Positions 1 through 51,408 of a stretch of DNA of 64,000 bases are shown in pieces. The position numbers and the translations under genes were made by a program. The stretch comes from Podarcis cretensis (Eukaryota): the NCBI GenBank assembly GCA_951804945.1, contig OX638153.1, positions 28,334,001 through 28,398,000 of the forward strand. Direction: 5' to 3'. Numbering within the stretch: the first letter of the stretch is position 1; the number at the start of each line of letters is the position of its first letter. The notes under the pieces were generated by a model. The model had not been told where the DNA came from and did not search any database. It worked only from the letters and a program-made list of their open reading frames with translations.

Positions 1-996
1 ATGAACGGGGTTGTATCAACTAACATGGATAAGTCACAAAACCAAAATGTTACAAAGGACGGCAGACTACCAAAGACTTTTTTTGAAACGACAGACAATA
101 TGGACTTAATTGACATTTGGAGAACGAAGAACCCCTTGGGAAGAGAGGGAACATTTTTCTCTGAAGCCCAGCTGACTTGGACAAGAATCGACCAAATATG
201 GATAACTAGAGGTCTGGCACCCAAGGTCAGAAAGGTGGAAATCTGCCCAAAGACCTGCTCCGACCATAATGCAACGAAGATGGACATGACACTACTACCA
301 ACCGGCTCCTTTAGATGGAAGATGAATGACAATTTGTTTAGAGATCAGGAGATTGTTGAGAAGGCCCAAAAAGCCTTGAAGGACTATTTTGAGATAAACA
401 TGAACACTATGGTGGAAAAAAGAACTATCTGGGACGCAAGTAAGGCTGTAATGAGGGGGTTCTTGATACAACAGAATGCTGTAAAGAAAAGGATACAAAA
501 TGAGAGGAAAGACAAGATATTGGAGAAAATCAAAGAATTGGAGAAGAAGTTAAGATCAAATCCGAAGTCACAGCCGACCCTGAGAGAAATCAAACTTCAT
601 CAAGCACAATATTCTAAATTGATAAACCAGGAAATAGAGTGGAAGATTAAATTAATGAAACAAAAAACTTTTGAATCGGCAAATAAATGTGGGAAACTGC
701 TAGCTTGGCATTTGAAGAGGAGACAAAAACTAAATACAGTCACAAATTTAGAAATTGAAGGAAGAAATATTCAGAACCCTGTGGAGATCAGAAAGTGCTT
801 CCAGAGATATTTCAAAAGATTATATACTCAAGGGCCGCAAGATGAGGTTGAGATTAAACAATTTTTGGAAAAAAATGGACTAACAAAATTGTCACAAGAA
901 AATAGATCAATCCTGAATTGCAAAATAACACGACAAGAGATTGAACAAGCCATTCAGAACATGCAATTGGGCAAATCAAAGAATTGGAGAAGTTAA
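1..996 (+). pseudogene. L1 ORF2 N-terminal part (APE endonuclease and linker), frameshifted by the internal duplication
   Basis: ORF 1..996 carries APE motifs and leaves the ORF2 frame after ...MQLGKS at the duplication junction (~977). Confidence 0.9.
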
Positions 997-1420
997 GATC
1001 AAATCCGAAGTCACAGCCGACCCTGAGAGAAATCAAACTTCATCAAGCACAATATTCTAAATTGATAAACCAGGAAATAGAGTGGAAGATTAAATTAATG
1101 AAACAAAAAACTTTTGAATCGGCAAATAAATGTGGGAAACTGCTAGCTTGGCAGTTGAAGAGGAGACAAAAACTAAATACAGTCACAAATTTAGAAATTG
1201 AAGGAAGAAATATTCAGAACCCTGTGGAGATCAGAAAGTGCTTCCAGAGATATTTCAAAAGATTATATACTCGAGGGCCGCAAGATGAGGTTGAGATTAA
1301 ACAATTTTTGGAAAAAAATGGACTAACAAAATTGTCACAAGAAAATAGATCAATCCTGAATTGCAAAATAACACGACAAGAGATTGAACAAGCCATTCAG
1401 AACATGCAATTGGGCAAATC
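527..1420 (+). repeat. Tandem duplication inside L1 ORF2 (527-972 and 973-1415)
   Basis: Two near-identical copies differing by one 3-bp indel and two substitutions that I can see. AAATC occurs at 527-531, 973-977 and 1416-1420. Confidence 0.95.
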
Positions 1421-3752
1421 CCCAGGGCCAGATGGGCTGACCTCCAAGTACTACAAGACATTAAAAGACTATCTGATACAACCACTGATGGAGGTCAGCA
1501 ATGAAATTATGGAGGGGAAGAAGGCGCCGGAATCGTGGAAAGAAGCTTTTATCACATTGATACCAAAATCGGAAGCTGAAAAGACACAACTTAAGAACTA
1601 TCGTCCCATCTCCCTTTTAAATGTGGATTACAAAATATTTGCAGACGTTTTGGCAAGTAGACTCAAAAAAGTATTAAATGAAGTAATTCATAAAGACCAG
1701 GCAGTCTTTCTCCCAGGTAGACACCTGTTTGCTAACACAAGGAATATCATTGACATTTTGGAACTTTTGCAAACAGACATAAATACAAAAGCAGTGTTAA
1801 TTTTTATAGATGCGGAGAAGGCCTTTGACAATATCTCTTGGAAATTTATGAAGGGAAATTTAAAAGAAATGGGAGTGGGACGGGGTTTTGAGAATGGGAT
1901 TGATGCAATATATTCAGAACAAAAAGCTAAATTGATAGTTAACAATGTGGTTACAGAAGAGTTTAAAATTGAAAAAGGAACACGACAAGGCTGCCCCATT
2001 TCCCCTCTGCTATTTATTTCGGTTCTGGAGGTGCTCTTGAATATGATCAGAGGGGACCGGTTGGTGGAAGGAATCCAGGTCGGAGTGAAACAATACAAAC
2101 TTAAAGCTTTTGCAGATGACCTAGTTTTGACCCTGCAGGAGCCAGAATCTAGTACGAAAAGAGTGTTACAATTGATTCAAGACTTTGGTCGGGTGGCGGG
2201 ATTTAAATTAAACAAACAGAAAACTAAGGTGCTGGGAAAAAATTTGACAGATACAGAGTCAGAACGGTTTCAGAGAGAGACAGAACTAACTGTGGTTAAA
2301 AAAGTAAAGTACCTAGGGGTAAACATAACAGCAAAAAATCTGAGTCTTTTTAAGGATAACTATGAAAAATGTTGGTCTGAAATTAAAAGAGACTTAGACA
2401 GTTGGACAAAATTGAAACTTTCTTTGTTAGGCCGAATTGCTGCTATTAAGATGAATGTATTGAATGTTATTTTGTTTCAAACACTACAGATTGTGGACAA
2501 GACGGAGTTCTTCCAGAAGTGGCAGAGAGACATCTCTAGGTTTGTCTGGCAGGGCAAAAAGCCCAGAATTAAGTTTAAGATATTAACTGATGCGAAAGAA
2601 AGAGGGGGCTTTGCCCTGCCAGACCTAAAGTTGTACTATGAGGCCGCAGCTTTCTGCTGGCTAAAAGACTGGCTACTTCTCGAGGACACTGACGTTCTGG
2701 ATCTGGAAGGTTTTAACAATGCTTTTGGTTGGCATGCATACTTATGGTATGACAAGGTTAAGATCAATAAGGCCTTTAAGAATCATATTGTCAGAAAAGC
2801 AGTGTTTAGTGTCTGGACAAAATATAAAGACTTATTGGAAAATAAAACTCCAAGGTGGCTTTCACCGCTGGAAGCTAAGGCCCGAAAAAGACCCAATATG
2901 GAGGCCAAATGGCCAAAATATTGGGAAATACTAGAAAAAGATGGAGACAATTGGAAATTGCAGAGTTTGGAGAAAATGAAGGATAAAGTGCGAGACTGGT
3001 TACACTACGCTCAGATTAAAGAAGTTTTTAAAAATGACAAAAAGTTAGGGTTCCAGGTGGAGAAATCGAAGTTGGAAACAGAACTGTTAGAGCCTAAGAC
3101 TAAGGTACTCTCAAGAATGTATAACTTGCTGTTAAAATGGAATACACAAGATGAAATGGCCATGATAAAGTGGGCACAGGACATTGGGCACAACATTATG
3201 TTTGAGGACTGGGAAAGGTTGTGGACCATTGGGTTGAACTTCACTGCATGTAATGCTTTGAAGGAAAATGTAATGAAAATGATATATAGATGGTACAAGA
3301 CCCCAGTTAAACTTGCCAAAATATACCATTTGTCTGATAATAAATGTTGGAAATGTAAAGAAAATGAAGGAACATTCTTTCACCTCTGGTGGACTTGCCC
3401 TAGAGTGAAGGCTTTCTGGGAAATGATATATAATGAGCTGAAAAAGGTATTTAAGTATACCTTCACTAAGAAACCAGAGGCCTTCCTTTTGGGTATTGTC
3501 GGCCAGAAGGTGTTAAGGAAGGACCGAACATTTTTTATGTATGCAACAACAGCAGCAAGGATATTTATCGCTAAGCATTGGAAAACCCAAGATCTACCCA
3601 CACTGGAAGAGTGGCAGATGCAGCTGATAGACTATATGGAACTAGCCGAGATGACCGGCAGAATCCGAGACCTGGGAGAAGAGAAAGTTGAAGAAGACTG
3701 GAAGAAATTTAAGATTTATTTAAAAAAGCATTGTAATTTGGTTGAATGTTAA
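984..3752 (+). pseudogene. L1 ORF2 reverse transcriptase and C-terminal domain (922 aa open, separated from the endonuclease)
   Basis: Complete RT motif set and Cys/His knuckle. The start is a TTG inside the second duplicated copy. Probable small in-frame deletions near KMNVLNVILFQ and QDEMAMIKW. Confidence 0.9.
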
Positions 3753-5462: not shown

Positions 5463-7502
5463 TGTACCTCCTGGTTTCTTCAGATCTGTTGTGGAGGCAC
5501 AGCCTTGTGTCTTTCACAGGAATGTGAATGGGAAGGATGCAAATCTGTACTTTCTCTGTGGTGACATACTGCCATTGTGGAAATGCAGCCAAGCTAAGCC
5601 CAGCTGGAGGCATCTCCATGGACCTCTCCACACTTAGTTAAGATGTAGCTGTTCCAGAAAGCATGTCTTGCCGGTTAAGCTGGAGCTGGTGCCATTCTCT
5701 GTTGGGACATAACCTGGAATCTTTGGCTGCGTTTCATGCCGGCTGTTTGTTTCTCATAGTGTTTGGGGGATGTTTTTATTGTAATTGTTTGTGTTTATTG
5801 CACAGTACATAGCTTTGAGTGTTCTCTTTTTGGCAGAGATCGTGAGATAGAAATTTCAATTAATTAATTAATATTTGGCAAAGAAATGAGAGAAAGCAGC
5901 TGGTGTGGTGGGGGCAATGGTGAGTAGCAGCAACACTTTTTAGTACCATTCTGAAATATATTCTGGGAGTGAGCCCTGACACAGATTTAGCCCCAGTGCA
6001 AATTTTGCCACACACACCCTCTCCTGCTGCATATGCTATCCCCACCGCTTTCCCATATTCATAATTAGTGTTGTGGGATAGAATTTTTTGTTTTGCTGTT
6101 ATTTGTTTTAGTGTTTATTGTGAAGATTTCATAGGACACAGCATCTGAATATTCTACTTCAAGCACTGAAGTGTCTTGGGAAGGCTTGTGTTGCTACACC
6201 AAGGGAAGGCACTATAGATATTCATCATTTGCTGTGATTTTTAATAGATATGGCACTGCAGGAGGAAATCTATCCTGAACACAAGCAATTCCCAAGGCCC
6301 CTCCCCCAACGTTAGTGTGTCCTGTGCTTAATATTAGCTATTGGCTTATTGATTACTCTTTATACAAACATGCTAATTCATTTTTCCTTTAACCTCTGAG
6401 ACTTTGAACTACAGGTCTGCTTCTGCAGTTTATTGAAGAACAAGCTCCTTAGTTCTTCGCTAGTCACTGAATGTGAGAGAGCTTGGAAAAGGCAATGCTC
6501 TCTAGAGGGCAGGCTTTGTCTAGTTATGCCTTGAAAGGTTTTCCTGTAAGGCCAAACAGCAGCTTTTGAAAATCTGTTCCTCCCCCAGATGTTGAAACAT
6601 TCTTTATTTTAATATTCCAACCATGCCCTTCTGCTAAATGTGGTCTTCAAGGTACGTATGTTTTAGCAAACCAAACTACATCAGACATGTGGCTGCAAGT
6701 GAACAGAGCCTTCCTGAAATGTACTTACTGCTTCCTTCTCATAACGTGTCTTTTCTCATATCTGGGATGTGGCGTAGCGTTGTACCTTTGGGGTAAATCC
6801 AGCTGGGTCCTTTGCACTAATGGAGAAGGGCTTTTGAACCAGCAGATGGTTCCACTGATGGAAGACGAAGGGAGGCCATTTTTGCTCTTTCACTCCCCTG
6901 ATTCCACCTTGTAGACTCCACCTCCCTCCCTGTTAGGGAAGATTACCCAACTCTCTGGAGCAGATTTCTTGGGGGTGCTGCTGCGGGTAGCAACAGGGAA
7001 GGGAAATTGCCAAGAATGGCCTCTTCCATTAGCAGAGGCCTCACCTACGTCAAAATTCCTTCCGTGAGTGCAAGGCCACTAACTGACCGCCATTAGTTGT
7101 GGGTGGGTGAGTAGGGAAATTCATGACATAACTAGTCACATCACAGAAAGTGAAGCTTCCCAATATGGAGAAGGAATTGAAAAAGCAAAACAGGAAGGGC
7201 CTGCTGGTACCCCCTCCATGTCTACTGTAATGTGTTGTTTGGCTACAAGCCAGATCAGAGAAGCTCCTTTTTTGTTTCTCAAGTTAACCTTGAAATGTGT
7301 TAAGCGGCTACGTGCATTTATTCCATTGTGTGCTTACTGTCAAAATATGCTGTGGAGAGCATACTGGCATTCGTTTATTTATTAATTTATTTTAAAGATT
7401 TATGCCTTGCCCTTCAACAAATTCTCAGGGTACACTGTAAAGAATCAGCATTACAGTGAAAACAACTTAAAACAAAAACATTAAGCCTACATTTTGGCTT
7501 AC

Positions 7503-44811: not shown

Positions 44812-46817
44812 ATTCCCAGGTCTAGTCCTTGGCAAATAGGAAATCGCAGCTGGCAGCCACTTCAATCATCTCTTAAGCCTCTCCAACCCTCTCCTAGCTT
44901 CATATGCTTATATCCTCAGCAGCTCTGATCTCTGTGATGGCAGTGGCACTTCTTGGCATCACCATTAACAACTGTTCCTTTCCTACTGCAAGTAAACTTG
45001 CTATATCACAAATTCTCTCTCACTCCTCACCTTTCATTGCCCGCCCTCAAGTGAATCAAACGGATTCTAACTGCCTTAGAATGCTGCTGACAAACTCTCC
45101 TCCGCATTCCAAAGGCGAGGGCATTGCAACAGGAGCAGGCATTTCACCCCAAACTGCCTTCCAGACTGTTGATTGTCTTGCATCCTATATCAAGAGTGCA
45201 AGATTAGGGTTGCCATATTTCAAAAAGTGAAAATCTGGACACAAAAGTTGTTGAGCCTTTTTGGCAAAGTTGCTCTTCCTTGTGATGCTCACTATAATCT
45301 GAATAGCTAAGAGTCGAACGTGACTAAACAATAAAGACAAATGTTTTTCCTCATTGTGATCATCTGCTCTTGCCTAGGGATGAAGATAAATAAATCTGCT
45401 GTTTTCAGCTTTTCTCCATTTCTCATGTTTCTGAATTCAGTTCCATATCCATGTCAGTTTGTGGGGGTTTTTAATGAAAATTTGTGCATGTTTTTATATG
45501 CAACTTGGTGTGCAGTTTTTCCTAATACAGTGTACACATTGTTTGCAAGCCATATCCCTCAATAGAATGTGTTTTGATAAGATGTTTCCACTAAAGACAT
45601 TGTTGAGGGTACTTTTCTCTATCATCTGCATACTTTTACATTTTTTTGGTTGGAGAACTTGCATCACAACATCCACAGATGTGCAGATTTTGAAAGGTAG
45701 CTGCATTTTAGCTCAGATATTGGTCCAGGAATGACAGGTTAGATAGGCTCACATTAAAGTGCAAACAGAACAAATTGCTCACCCATCCTTACTCACAGCT
45801 ATCATCTGAAGAAACACAAGATTAACATGCAAAAAACATATTAGGAAATGTAATTATCTCTCCAAAGAAATTTCTTGATTCCGAAAGAGTAATACCACAG
45901 CAATTGTCAAAAATTATAACAAACTACATTTGAGTGTAATTCAAAACACATGATGCAGGGGTGAGGGGTGGTGATAACCTAGTGTGAAAGATAACAACAT
46001 GACTTAGGGTGCTTCTTTAACCTCACTTACCCAGGAGTAAATCCCATTGAATTAAGTGGGACGTACCACTGAGTAGACATGGTTGGGCTTGCAGCCTTAG
46101 ATCACTCCATATATGCATGGGGGCGGGGGCAGAAAATGCATTCTTTATACCATTCAGCAATGAATATGACTTCTAGAATTTTAGTTACCTATGGAACTTC
46201 CTGATATAGATATAAAACAGCCTTTCATCTATTGCATTTTGGTGGCAATCATCATGATGATTTGCTGAGTTTTTGAGTAACATAAAAAAATAATAATGAA
46301 CAGATTGCTTCCAGTCAGTGGCCATATGGCAATGCACAAATGAATAAGTGAAGATTTTGAGCTCTCTCGCTCTTTCTCCCTCTTGTGTGTGGAGCTTTTA
46401 GAATGTAAAATACATGTCTGCCTCTTCTACTGCTTGAACAATTGCTGGGCAAAACACTGGTAAATGTCTGGTTGTAACCTAGGTCAGCCTTTGACCTTTA
46501 ATCAATTGGAGCCCTATAATTTCCTGTGATGTGCCAAGCAGTAACTCTTTACAAAAGAAGGCCTTTATTTCTGCTGGGTCCATCTTAAAAGGTGTGTGTG
46601 TGTATGGCTTTATTTGGCAGTTCTGACAACTTTTGAATCCCCAAGTTGTCCCCAATGCATTTCAAAAGTGTACCATCTGATCACCTGAAGAAATTCTGAC
46701 AGGTTGCAAAAGCACATCACTGTGAGATGGTTGTGGTTCGAGGACCCGACCCCCGCAATGTGGAAAGAATACACACGGACACGTGATATAAGGTTAATGG
46801 GCAAGGAAAGGCCACAA

Positions 46818-47592
46818 TGCCCCTTCCGACCTTCAGGAGGAGGGGGGGTTGTGGGATCACGACCCCGCCCACACTCTGCGAGGCTGGCGTCAGCCTCGCA
46901 GGAGACAGGGATTCACCCAATTAGCATACCCTGTGGCGCCAGCCAATTGGCTGGCGGCAGGGGCGGGCCTTCCTAGGGCCACTTAAGGTCAGGGCAGCCC
47001 CTGGCTCACCCCCTTTCTTCCCTGGAGACGTCGCAGTTTCCCACCCACCCGCCCTTTAGGTTTTGCCACTGACCTTGCTATGGGCTTCGGCTGGTCGCCG
47101 CAAGGGGCCTGGTAGGAGTTTTTCCATTTGGCTAATTGGCTGGTTTTGTGAGCCACTTGGTTTTTTCGCCTACCTCGTAGCAAATCGTCACAACTCCCTC
47201 GGTTTTGGCGGTAGGCATTGGCCGGGGTATTATCATGCAGATGAGGTTGGGGGGGAGGAACGCCATCACCTCCCCCAATGCTTGAAGGGTAGTTCGTTAA
47301 AGGACTCCGAGGGGCGACGCCTCGTCCGAAACCTACGGAGGCTAGGGCCTAAAGCGCGCCCCCGAGCGGTAACCCCTTGGGGAGCGCCCAGGGATATGCA
47401 TCTCGGGTGGCTCCCCCTGTTGGTGTTTAACCCTTCCCGGTCAGACCGGATAGTCGGTTAGGGCCAATGCCTAAAGCCAATACCCTTCTTTCCTGTAATC
47501 AATAAAGTTGTGGCCATTTTTCGCCCATTAACCTAAAACTCTGTGTCCGTTGTCTTCATTTATTCCACCTGTGGGGGGGAGGGAATAGCCAC
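46818..47592 (+). mobile_element. Solo A-B unit of a related Ngaro family, nested in opposite orientation inside B2
   Basis: Interrupts B2 relative to the intact B1. (C)ACAA is repeated at 46813-46817 and 47592-47596. Shares collinear blocks with the reverse complement of A2-B2. CCAAT boxes ~46917 and 46943, GC box ~46960, AATAAA 47501. Confidence 0.88.
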
Positions 47593-47874
47593 ACAACTTT
47601 ATTGATTACAGCAGTGAAAAGGTATTGGCTTAGGCATTGGATTTGAACAAGTGGGTTTTTTCACCAGAAGGTGGAGCCAGTTGATGCCGATCCAACTATA
47701 GGCTCACCCCTAATGTCACCGAGGGTCGTGCCATGGCCTCCCGCCAAGCAGGCATCGGACAGAATACACGACCGCCAGATTCCTTTAACGGAATACCCCT
47801 AAAGATTGAAGGCATAGGCGATGGCCACACCTAGCTCTTCGACACAGCACAACACATTATTCCAATGCCTAACC

Positions 47875-48272
47875 TACCCACCAATACCACAAAAAGTTGT
47901 GACGATTGCTACGAGGTAGGCGAAAAAACCAAAAAGGCCTAATGCCAAATGGAAAAACTCCTACCAGGCCCCCTAGTCAACCAGGGCGACCAACCTAAGG
48001 TCCATAGCAAGGCCAGTGACCCAAGCCCTAACTAAAAGGGAGTGGAGGGTGGGTGACTCGTGGTGAGAGGACGAAGAATGAGGCCGGGCGAAGGCTGCCG
48101 CCGCAGCAAAAGGCTGCTGAACACGCCCCCCTGAGGCACCTGGTTGGATGCCTGCTGGGGGGCGTGGTCGCCAGCCAGGTGAGGTGATGGCAGGGGGCTA
48201 ATGCCCCCTGCTAGGGGCGGTGCTCGGGCTCCCGCCCACAACCACTCCCCTCTCTTGCAGGGAGGAGAGTCT
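47875..48272 (-). repeat. Ngaro A2 repeat (48056-48272 matches A1 50110-50326)
   Basis: Direct comparison shows one visible substitution (gtggTcgcc vs gtggGcgcc). Confidence 0.92.
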
Positions 48273-48276
48273 TTGT

Positions 48277-48637
48277 GGTTCGAGGACCCGACCCCCGCAA
48301 TGTGGAAAGAATACACACGGACACGTGATATAAGGTTAATGGGCAAGGAAAGGCCACAACTTTATTGATTACAGCAGTGAAAAGGTATTGGCTTAGGCAT
48401 TGGATTTGAACAAGTGGGTTTTTTCACCAGAAGGTGGAGCCAGTTGATGCCGATCCAACTATAGGCTCACCCCTAATGTCACCGAGGGTCGTGCCATGGC
48501 CTCCCGCCAAGCAGGCATCGGACAGAATACACGACCGCCAGATTCCTTTAACGGAATACCCCTAAAGATTGAAGGCATAGGCGATGGCCACACCTAGCTC
48601 TTCGACACAGCACAACACATTATTCCAATGCCTAACC
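48277..48637 (-). repeat. Ngaro B1 repeat (identical by eye to the split B2)
   Basis: 48277-48637 matches 46735-46817 plus 47597-47874; contains a minus-strand AATAAA. Confidence 0.93.
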
Positions 48638-48671
48638 GCCACCCGAGCCGCAAGGCTCGCCGCCAATACCC

Positions 48672-49328
48672 TCACGGCTGTAACCAATCCCGGATACTAT
48701 TAATGACGCTATCTAACCAGATGTCGTTCCCCAGGTCTGATAGATGCACCCCGTCATTCCGGTATAAGGCGTGCTCGCCGATACGGATACGGTCGTGATA
48801 AATGACTCGGCCATACATGAAGCGCACCCAACGGGCAACTGCCCGATTTACGAGTTTCCTGGTTTTTTCAATGGCCATACAGCTGCGCGCTCCGCGCCAA
48901 AAAGTCCTCTTCAGCATAGAAGACCAGAACACTGTCGTTCCGGGACATAAAGTAGCGAACGCATCCAAGTCACTTTTCATGCTCGCTAGCAAGTCCACAC
49001 TTCTCCTACTAGTCAAGTCATTCTCTCCTAATTGGATGACCAGGATATCGGGAGGGCCGAACGCGGCTACTTTCTCCCACAACAACGGCTTAAGCTCGAC
49101 CCAGAGCATGCCTCTTCTCGAGAACCAGGAAACTCGAACTCCAGGTGGTAAACCAAGGTTAGGCGCAAGGCCGCGGCTGGCCGCCCGAACACGGGCCCAA
49201 TGGACTATACTGTGGCCGCAAAACCACACATGTCGCCTGAACACAGCTGAGGGTGAAAGGAGAGAGAAAACCGGTAAGTAAGAGGACAACAGGGGGAGCA
49301 CTCTAACGTATGTAGCTTTTGTACGCAT
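48672..49328 (-). CDS. SGNH/GDSL-family hydrolase (esterase) of the Ngaro element
   Basis: Block I VWFCGHSI, block II RRGM, block III IQLGENDL, block V DGVHL. The 218-aa frame is uninterrupted; the true start is uncertain. Confidence 0.88.
   Translation of the reverse strand: MRTKATYVRVLPLLSSYLPVFSLLSPSAVFRRHVWFCGHSIVHWARVRAASRGLAPNLGLPPGVRVSWFSRRGMLWVELKPLLWEKVAAFGPPDILVIQLGENDLTSRRSVDLLASMKSDLDAFATLCPGTTVFWSSMLKRTFWRGARSCMAIEKTRKLVNRAVARWVRFMYGRVIYHDRIRIGEHALYRNDGVHLSDLGNDIWLDSVINSIRDWLQP
49247..49285 (-). promoter_or_regulatory. Candidate 3' splice acceptor upstream of the SGNH domain
   Basis: Minus strand cctcttacttaccggttttctctctcctttcaccctcAG|ctgtg. Confidence 0.55.
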
Positions 49329-50361
49329 TGGATTTCCACCGGCCCATTTCCTTTATCCTATCCGTGGGCAGGCCCAAGTGGGCAGCAGTTGTTGCAGCAC
49401 CGATCCTGAATGAATGCGCCGCATATTCTCGGGGAGATAGGCCACACTCCTCAATAGCTTTGCGGAGTACCCTGGTGAACTGGTGCCTCAACAATGGAGA
49501 CCCATCCTCGTGCAACAGGAGCGGACCGGGGCCGGGTGGTCTAAGGTAAAGGTACCGCCTAGTGTCCTTTACCGGGCATGGGCCTTGTTGCGCCGATGCT
49601 GTCAGCTTAACCAGAACCCCTTTCCCAGCCTGATCTGTTTTGGACTGGCGTATCCTGACCATCAAAGCCGACTCAGACAACTGCACGTCCTCCATAAGAA
49701 GGCCGCGCGTAGAACCCCTCGCGCTAGCTTCCACTACAACCTCGCCAACTCTCAAAGCGCCAAAAAAGGCAATGGCGTACGCCGCGGAAAAGAGGCGGGC
49801 CTCAAACTTGCTCCAGCAAATTGACCTAAGCTTCAAGCGTATTTGAGATAGCAACCCATAAGAAATTGGCTTGCGGCCCTCGGTCCTAGGGGGTTGTGAC
49901 CTGCTCCAACCTTCAATAGCTCTACGGATAAGAAAGTCACTACACGGGTCGGAAGAAAAGGTGGCTTTAGAAAAGAAGCTGATTGCAGCTACATGTATCT
50001 TTAAGGTTTTGGGAGCGCGTCCCAAATCATCCAGGTGGGAAAGGTACTGAAGGACATTGTCGGTGGTGGGTGGAACATTATGTGAAAGCCCAGATATCCC
50101 AGATATCTCACTCGTGGTGAGAGGACGAAGAATGAGGCCGGGCGAAGGCTGCCGCCGCAGCAAAAGGCTGCTGAACACGCCCCCCTGAGGCACCTGGTTG
50201 GATGCCTGCTGGGGGGCGTGGGCGCCAGCCAGGTGAGGTGATGGCAGGGGGCTAATGCCCCCTGCTAGGGGCGGTGCTCGGGCTCCCGCCCACAACCACT
50301 CCCCTCTCTTGCAGGGAGGAGAGTCTTTGTAGAACTTCATAAGCCCAACTCTACAGCACAT
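49303..50361 (-). CDS. Tyrosine recombinase of the Ngaro element, N-terminally truncated (YR part ~49303-50109, fused in frame to A1 and host flank)
   Basis: FFGALRVGE (R), RQSKTDQ (K), HSFRIGAAT (HxxR), GRWKS (W) and AYKSYIR (Y) are all present. Confidence 0.92.
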   Translation of the reverse strand: MCCRVGLMKFYKDSPPCKRGEWLWAGARAPPLAGGISPLPSPHLAGAHAPQQASNQVPQGGVFSSLLLRRQPSPGLILRPLTTSEISGISGLSHNVPPTTDNVLQYLSHLDDLGRAPKTLKIHVAAISFFSKATFSSDPCSDFLIRRAIEGWSRSQPPRTEGRKPISYGLLSQIRLKLRSICWSKFEARLFSAAYAIAFFGALRVGEVVVEASARGSTRGLLMEDVQLSESALMVRIRQSKTDQAGKGVLVKLTASAQQGPCPVKDTRRYLYLRPPGPGPLLLHEDGSPLLRHQFTRVLRKAIEECGLSPREYAAHSFRIGAATTAAHLGLPTDRIKEMGRWKSNAYKSYIR

Positions 50362-50444
50362 TCATACCCATTTCTTTTTTAAAAAGTTAATATGGTTTGT
50401 TTTATAAGCAGTTTGTAGCTGTTACAATATTGTGTTCTTTTTAC

Positions 50445-50734
50445 ACACGGACACTGAGATCCAGCGCCGAGGGCCTTCTGGCGGTTCCCTCATTACGAGA
50501 AGTGAGGCTACAGGGAACCAGACAGAGGGCCTTCTCGGTAGTGGCGCCCGCCCTGTGGAACGCCCTCCCATCAGATGTCAAAGAGATAAAGAATTACCTG
50601 ACATTCAGAAGACATCTTAAGGCAGCCCTGTTCAGGGAAGTTTTTAATATGTAATGCTGTACTGTTTTTAACACTGATTGGGAGCCGCCCAGAGTGGCTG
50701 GGGAAACTCAGCCAGATGGGCGGGGTATAAATAA

Positions 50735-50764
<30 letters not shown>
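50445..50764 (+). mobile_element. L2 LINE 3' fragment with (TTA)n tail
   Basis: Encodes RAFSVVAPALWNALP..FRRHLKAALF, followed by a UTR, AATAAA and (TTA)n. Confidence 0.88.
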
Positions 50765-50766
<2 letters not shown>

Positions 50767-51408
50767 AAAAATAACATTGAAGCAAATTAAATTAGTTGCT
50801 TTAGTAACCAGTTGTAATATCTGGATTCATTAATAACCCATTCATAACCAGTTGTATCTTATATTGAGGAATAGAAATGTTTCCCAACCCCCTGCAATGT
50901 AGGAATGTCAACAAACAGTTCCCCATCCAATTTGAAACCATACTGGACTCTGCTTAGCTTTCAAGACATGCTAGCAGTTTTATTGCTGCAGCAAAAGAGG
51001 ATGTTGCTCTATTGCCTTACCCGAATATCTACCAGTTCATCCACGATCCAGGTGTTTGATTTTCTGCTTATCATAATCATATTATACTTCATACAATATT
51101 TCACAGATTATTTCCCCCCCCCCCCATATTATGCAGGATTTCACTAGAACCAACCTCTGAGCATTGGTGAAGGCTATTTTCTACATACTATATTCACTTG
51201 CTATGCAATAGTCTGTTCTTTACACACAGCAAGGCTTACTATTTGGATAGGCTCTTAACAAAGGAAGGGGAAGAGAGGAGTAGAAGAGAGGCAGTATGTT
51301 GTCATTTGGTGTTTAAATGGCCAAGCAAGAACCTACAGCCACAGTCTGGACTTGGTGATTGCATGCTTTTAAAAGCATATTTTTGTTTGTTCACTTTGAT
51401 CAAAGGTA

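Follow-up and report, generated by a model that had tools for sequence, protein, structure and literature searches.

A recent, 5'-truncated Ngaro insertion in Podarcis cretensis and a possible route to the left end of vertebrate Ngaro elements

Here we analyse an Ngaro retrotransposon on the minus strand of a 64,000-nucleotide stretch of Podarcis cretensis DNA (GenBank assembly GCA_951804945.1, contig OX638153.1, positions 28,334,001 to 28,398,000; this whole stretch is called the window, and coordinates refer to it). The evidence supports this copy being a one-off, recent insertion whose outer ends are precise and whose internal junction, at which its first repeat, A1, is fused to the interior of the tyrosine recombinase (YR) gene, is unique. 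Fusions of the same kind recur among its relatives, with clustered breakpoints in A1. We will argue that the copy was probably truncated at birth, a separately made piece of A-repeat DNA having been end-joined to an incomplete reverse transcript. We further suggest, with a probability of roughly 0.4, that the left end of vertebrate Ngaro elements is rebuilt in each cycle from plus-strand strong-stop DNA, whose synthesis a conserved G-quadruplex terminates where a structured spacer begins, and that the recombinase would join the two arms to the target separately.

Results

The element has the split direct repeats of an Ngaro, A1...B1-A2-B2, with two additions: a spacer of unique sequence, X, between A2 and B2, and an insertion in B2 (Table 1). 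Repeat finding paired 50110-50330 with 48056-48276 (A1/A2), 48355-48637 with 47592-47874, and 48273-48359 with 46731-46817. Because two B pairs were found, B1 is a single 365-nucleotide (nt) block and B2 is split. With the two B2 halves joined for comparison, B1 and B2 show 0 differences in 365 sites, and A1 and A2 differ at 1 of 221. The change is private to A2, and the idea that A1 was copied from another element therefore has no support. The outer ends are precise and lie at a short core shared with the target, an AA core in relatives. An earlier note, made from the sequence alone, had described a very young Ngaro from a recently active family, lacking gag, reverse transcriptase (RT) and ribonuclease H (RH), with a single A1/A2 difference. 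All of this holds. It had also taken B1 and B2 to be identical over about 360 bp, which is correct at 365 of 365 sites, and had given the order A1-ORFs-B1-A2-B2 (ORF, open reading frame), which is correct for the repeats; it overlooked the 181-bp spacer and the 783-bp nested unit that makes B2 non-contiguous.

For the A1-YR junction, the best 40 of 1253 candidates were scored, and the junction was matched end to end at one of them; for YR, the best 40 of 188 were scored, and one covered the whole query. The copy-number check proposed in the earlier note thus returns a single copy, 1 of 40 scored hits in both searches. Among the scored YR matches there are only two other copies at 99%, which differ from this one at 24 of 2510 sites; both begin past the filler and lack the junction. 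Its second check, for a full-length partner, found none at 99%: both close relatives are themselves 5'-truncated, and gag is otherwise matched at 81% at best.

The site was also compared with contigs from four public runs, three samples under one organism label and one under another, contig records for the left and right flank being paired by length, strand and depth. One contig each in runs X2 (849 nt), X5 (337 nt) and X4 (1436 nt) spans both flanks, to 46734 and from 50327 with a 4-nt overlap. Run X1 has the same 849-nt contig at the left flank and the same depth at the right flank. Bridging contigs accordingly show the site to be empty in three of the four runs, and it is inferred to be empty in the fourth, which answers the empty-site check across individuals that had also been proposed. 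The 4-nt core occurs once in the empty allele and twice around the element. Recent activity of the family is supported.

We now consider the relatives. A total of 44 coding-bearing loci were fetched through YR, gag, SGNH or A matches, giving 45 with this copy; two lone A loci (L031, L034), three near-identical duplicated loci with A1 and native leader (L035/L036/L039) and 20 distant loci (L142-L161) are excluded from this number. A1 is present in the fetched stretch in 29 of the 45. It is fused directly to a non-adjacent internal point in 25 of these 29, every resume point being different (from the leader to just before B1), and the leader is kept in four, one of them uncertain. Measured from the A-X boundary, the A-side breaks lie at -43 to +1 in 23 of the 25, and the other two at -100 and -163; X is carried by 0 of the 25. 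This clustering has a binomial p of 3e-27 to 1e-11 for assumed null chances of 0.04-0.2. The relatives are not randomly deleted, so that only one half of what the earlier note said would refute its reading, a single-copy junction together with full-length or randomly deleted members, was found.

The joints have 0-6 nt of microhomology or fillers of up to about 290 nt. A family that is 63-65% identical shows the A-capped form in 2 of 5 young copies (breaks at -7 and -11), and the family of the nested unit shows it once (L121, break at -39). The two lone A insertions have a precise left end and breaks at -2 or -9. In 6 of 19 tested copies without a complete A1, 14-75 nt of the right flank are duplicated exactly, from the AA core onwards. 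In full-length copies the A1-leader joints vary, with tandem and inverted micro-duplications. In the sister family, 13 of 16 copies have an A1 that is the same as their own A2 across 220 nt, and 3 of 5 chimeras, whose 5' half is from a foreign family, are among them. Lone A pieces, duplications, variable joints and A1 matching its own A2 together suggest that each cycle makes A1 anew, as a piece of its own that is then joined without precision.

Two other origins were rejected. A spliced-mRNA origin of the junction does not fit, since the resume point is 3 nt beyond an AG and breakpoints vary among relatives. LINE-type (long interspersed nuclear element) insertion of Ngaro mRNA, considered for the copies with target duplications, does not fit either, since at the 3' side these copies run to the complete B end, past AATAAA, and have no poly(A).

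Several single loci can be added. At the A1-leader joint of L159, the A1 end is followed by an inverted copy of itself and the first leader bases, and at a single 5' end of L137 (about 6180-6305, oriented) a 13-nt A stub occurs together with filler and a target duplication, which makes it a mixed product. A long frame near two of the three duplicated loci with A1 and leader resembles a vomeronasal type-2 receptor exon. Most older copies (L072-L091, L122-L141) stop at B1 without A2-X-B2; 28 of 30 young sister-family copies retain A2-X-B2.

The A-side breaks direct attention to the A-X boundary. In six families X opens with four C-runs, placed at the end of the A1/A2 homology or, in two of them, at the A2 end by alignment; in families with full-length young copies the homology stops at most 4 nt from four C-runs with 1-nt loops. 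On the strand of the complementary DNA (cDNA) these runs are a G-quadruplex motif. The strict short-loop pattern is found at the X start in 6 of 7 elements scanned and is the sole such motif in 5 of those 6. Matches to the X core number 2282 genome-wide. Among the first 30 in genome order (L162-L191), 16 have the strict pattern and 18 the strict or once-bulged one, compared with 1/480 and 3/480 control windows. The loop letters change and the C-runs and 1-nt loops are retained, as expected under selection on a quadruplex. G-quadruplex structures arrest polymerases on single-stranded templates, and we tentatively regard the one predicted at the A2-X boundary as a candidate stop signal for plus-strand copying.

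The alignment of X also folds into a predicted four-way junction with modest covariation, 168 of 168 cells being paired and 2 pairs changed on both sides in 7 sequences, the structure having been derived from this same alignment. This conserved fold (window 47900-48010 and 47065-47185) has loops of UUCG and GNRA type in several families. Folds of single X sequences did not reach significance (z 0.04 and -1.86), and an Rfam scan of the element gave no match in X and one weak hit (E 0.17, below gathering), which was rejected as chance. The modelled fold could act as a signal for packaging or priming, or as one that enhances poly(A) addition.

Turning to the genes that remain, the YR catalytic domain (PF00589, E 2.6e-5) and the SGNH/GDSL domain (PF13472, E 3.1e-5) both score below the Pfam curated cut-off; the YR catalytic motifs align with those of relatives, and the SGNH frame matches the ORF1 esterase structure 4c1b weakly (E 0.11). 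This copy has no gag or RT/RH frame. The order gag, RT/RH, YR, absent here, is present in L032 (99% identical) and in L157 (RVT_1). Gag in relatives is assigned by position alone, with no Pfam match, and their RT frames have RVT_1 as the sole match (E 0.01); as in other Ngaro elements, there is no methyltransferase and an optional SGNH frame follows YR.

Compared with the 332-codon YR frame of L032, the frame here begins at codon 68, after the 8-nt filler. The lost codons 1-67 take away about the first third of an N-terminal SAM-like domain (residues 45-114 in L032). The first in-frame ATG lies downstream of the catalytic Arg, and the first five ATGs past A1 open frames of at most 25 codons each. 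L032 likewise has no early Met, so YR expression likely relies on upstream sequence, which is deleted in this copy. With 67 codons lost and no upstream ATG, a complete and expressible YR is not present; the catalytic motifs that the earlier note called unbroken in both frames are indeed kept, in a YR that lacks its N-terminus and an early ATG. A pyrimidine tract and AG precede the SGNH motif in all 8 elements printed, which suggests that the SGNH frame is likely a spliced exon whose donor is gone here. This copy is predicted to be non-coding in practice and is itself ordinary dead-on-arrival debris.

The 774 bases between the B2 halves, together with the shared core, constitute an opposite-strand paralog of A-X-B (73% mean column identity). 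This nested unit is 100% identical to 6 other loci, with 40 of 40 scored hits rounding to 100%, and it is the 3' end of a 7.7-kb family. No sense-strand frame above 205 codons was found in the five copies of that family scanned, which points to a non-autonomous family. Its copies L052-L071 have decayed frames, are 97-100% identical and have identical repeats, and 5 of these 20 are chimeras with the 5' half of another family. The 7.7-kb family is large, very young and non-autonomous.

Solo A-X-B units make up about 10 of the 40 scored nested-unit hits. The upstream B1 is missing in 29 of the 30 sampled X loci, so that solo units far outnumber elements. When solo units are compared with B1/B2 collapse in the young sister family, the counts are 10:29 versus 2:28 (Fisher p 0.055), which is suggestive only. 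The solo units may have arisen at insertion, by mobility of their own or by A1-A2 recombination. They and the 7.7-kb family with decayed ORFs are the true non-autonomous Ngaro forms in this genome. In young full-length copies of other families (L157, L159, L160, L154), the gag, RT/RH and YR frames are long and the A and B repeats are identical, and such copies are possible protein sources in trans.

Elsewhere in the window, a high-copy short repeat with an ATT tail adjoins A1 (50442-50776) and is missing from the orthologous contig of run X4. A 935-codon frame at 945-3752 is, judging by its motifs, presumably a LINE-type reverse transcriptase ORF2.

Table 1. Features of the Ngaro element and its nested unit, in window coordinates.
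Feature	Position	Strand	Remark
Ngaro element, whole	50330 to 46731	-	
A1 split direct repeat, 221 nt	50110..50330	-	stops 2 nt before native A end of leader-keeping relatives
Filler at A1-YR junction, 8 nt	50102..50109	-	near copy of adjoining YR bases
Tyrosine recombinase (YR) frame, 5'-truncated	49303..50101	-	without codons 1-67 of 332; catalytic motifs present
SGNH esterase frame	48672..49352	-	motifs GHS, GEND, DGVH
Acceptor-like site, pyrimidine tract and AG	49247-49248	-	ahead of SGNH motif
B1 repeat, 365 nt	48273..48637	-	AATAAA inside
A2 repeat	48056..48276	-	from repeat finding
Spacer X, 181 nt	47875..48055	-	conserved across sister families; predicted four-way junction
Four G-runs, one interrupted, cDNA strand, A2-X boundary	48038..48053	+	G-quadruplex-like motif
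B2, first part, 283 nt	47592..47874	-	from repeat finding
Nested solo A-X-B unit of sister Ngaro family, 783 nt	46814..47596	+	5-nt core duplication at flanks
Canonical short-loop G-quadruplex motif, cDNA strand of nested unit, A-X boundary	47040..47054	-	
B2, last part, 87 nt	46731..46817	-	precise 3' end
Target core, 4 nt	46731..46734 and 50327-50330		single in empty allele

Discussion

The route that we propose would start with RT copying the RNA from the B2 end and often halting early. Plus-strand synthesis would run over B1-A2 until the G-quadruplex motif of the single-stranded cDNA brought it to a stop at A2-X, giving a strong-stop-like piece whose 3' end is the A end. This piece would be end-joined, through short homology or filler, to any available cDNA end, complete or incomplete, the 8-nt filler at the A1-YR junction then being a templated insertion of the end-joining type. 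The YR of an intact element would join the B-A junction to a target sharing the AA core. Where the A arm was lost, a copy with a long target duplication would remain; where the B arm was lost, a lone A piece would. In the present copy, a solo A-X-B unit of the sister family later inserted into B2. If the proposal is true, one cycle gives rise not only to full copies but also to A-capped truncations, lone A pieces, one-ended copies that have long target duplications, and solo A-X-B units in their thousands.

A number of points weigh against this proposal. The family of this very copy has an interrupted motif (3-2-3-3) that fails the strict pattern, and 12 of the 30 sampled X loci fail both the strict and the bulged patterns, most of them looking point-mutated and old and one being truncated. 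The families share ancestry, so that recurrences of the motif are not independent. For five of the A-side breaks the position was corrected by eye. Truncation is not universal, since 17 of 20 copies in the family of the nested unit are full length, and leader-keeping deletions in L122, L057 and L116, with the leader also present in L088/L132, indicate that a second route operates. No target duplication was seen in 13 of the 19 A-less copies, several of which had their 5' end outside the fetched stretch or later insertions. Contigs can miss a second allele, and a full-length allele at this locus could escape them. Finally, the intermediate, the folding of the quadruplex and the arrest of the polymerase are predictions from sequence.

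The alternative closest to our proposal keeps the discrete A piece and lets another feature of X set its end, which might be the structured RNA, a site of cleavage, or a C-rich site bound by a primer or protein. The conserved four-way junction predicted in X and the imperfect tract in this copy's family would fit, and we consider this a real, if minority, possibility. The four-way junction, however, starts about 45 nt downstream of the boundary, X has no Rfam match, and it is the C-runs and 1-nt loops that are retained as the loop letters vary.

It is also conceivable that RT made a jump out of the YR region onto the RNA's capped 5' end and that the ends were then regenerated normally, with no separate A DNA. 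Such a jump would account for the 1-6 nt microhomologies at several junctions and for the 20 of 25 A-side breaks that fall in the last 27 nt of A, around the inferred transcription start. It should, however, often land in the leader, which is kept in only 4 of 29 copies; 5 of the 25 breaks lie upstream of that start, and the lone A insertions and the fillers of 29-290 nt need DNA end-joining. We therefore regard this explanation as unlikely.

Still less probable is a full-length insertion that later lost gag-RT-RH by ordinary chromosomal deletion. Fillers at junctions are typical of chromosomal end-joining, and both the filler here and the leader-keeping deletions of some relatives agree with it, but random loss would not place 23 of 29 5' breakpoints in a 46-nt window, and this copy is very young, with identical B repeats and a site that is empty elsewhere.

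The earlier note had offered a one-off deletion or a non-autonomous subfamily, and the one-off character stands. A subfamily with a working YR and SGNH module that borrows RT in trans is very improbable, for all that both frames are stop-free with their motifs, the cis repeats are complete, the A1 frame happens to read open into YR, only the best-ranked candidates were scored, and DIRS-1 RT can act in trans according to the part of PMC7192593 covered: the junction occurs once among the scored hits and in neither 99% copy, YR is short of 67 codons and a start, the 25 capped relatives all have different resume points, and in three runs the contig matches cease or end at 50101, none listed spanning the junction.

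Truncation at birth, with a remade A end, can also be set against known systems. The strong-stop DNA of long terminal repeat (LTR) retroelements is a short terminal piece that is made separately and transferred to the other cDNA end, and it is set by the template end and a tRNA primer. In the proposed Ngaro route, a G-quadruplex would instead determine the stop, and ends can be joined with little or no homology.

The comparisons that follow concern the covered parts of each source. Xenopus DIRS-53_XT and DIRS-54_XT are Ngaro elements carrying a hydrolase, and the Ngaro structure and SGNH frame have been described (PMC9210276). They share the A1-ORFs-B1-A2-B2 layout of the repeats and, with the full-length relatives found here, the order gag, RT/RH, YR, SGNH (PMC9210276), and differ in that the elements here have a 162-181-bp unique A2/B2 spacer and that the present copy is without gag, RT/RH and the YR N-terminus. 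Cafeteria Ngaro type 2b likewise has 5' deletions removing ORF1 and isolated AB units; the deletions, of about 2 kb, were read as affecting target choice and the solo AB units as recombination products, A-end breakpoints and a G-tract being unmentioned in section 11 (PMC8547959). The SIRE of Trypanosoma cruzi consists of A2, a short unique region and B2 of VIPER (PMC6681497). The nested unit, like most X-bearing loci, is an A-spacer-B remnant of this kind, and solo units far outnumber elements here as SIRE does in T. cruzi; SIRE belongs to another YR superfamily, however, and its unique region is about 30 bp, compared with about 170 bp with conserved structure here. DIRS-1 has linear single-stranded cDNA intermediates, some incomplete, and an RT that acts in trans, as assumed here, but inverted repeats plus an ICR (internal complementary region) in place of split direct repeats (PMC7192593).

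As for the junctions themselves, repeat loss is mentioned without junction analysis in the covered part of PMC9210276, and that of PMC4157794 contains nothing on junctions. No paper on A-end breakpoints or an Ngaro G-quadruplex was found by title or abstract start; the original Ngaro description and a 2015 review cited in PMC9210276 may cover the spacer or a model, and junctions of a comparable kind might be contained in Table S2 of PMC9210276 and in Supplementary file 1 of PMC8547959.

Conclusion

As far as the literature examined shows, the rebuilding of ends in split-direct-repeat retrotransposons (Ngaro, PAT, VIPER) is described by models with little direct evidence. Failed insertions such as the one analysed here would record the intermediates, namely a discrete A piece with a defined 3' end, together with a candidate signal that may set it. 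For annotators, the results are a warning that what looks like a 'YR+SGNH' or 'SGNH-only' subfamily of Ngaro can be a product of truncation.

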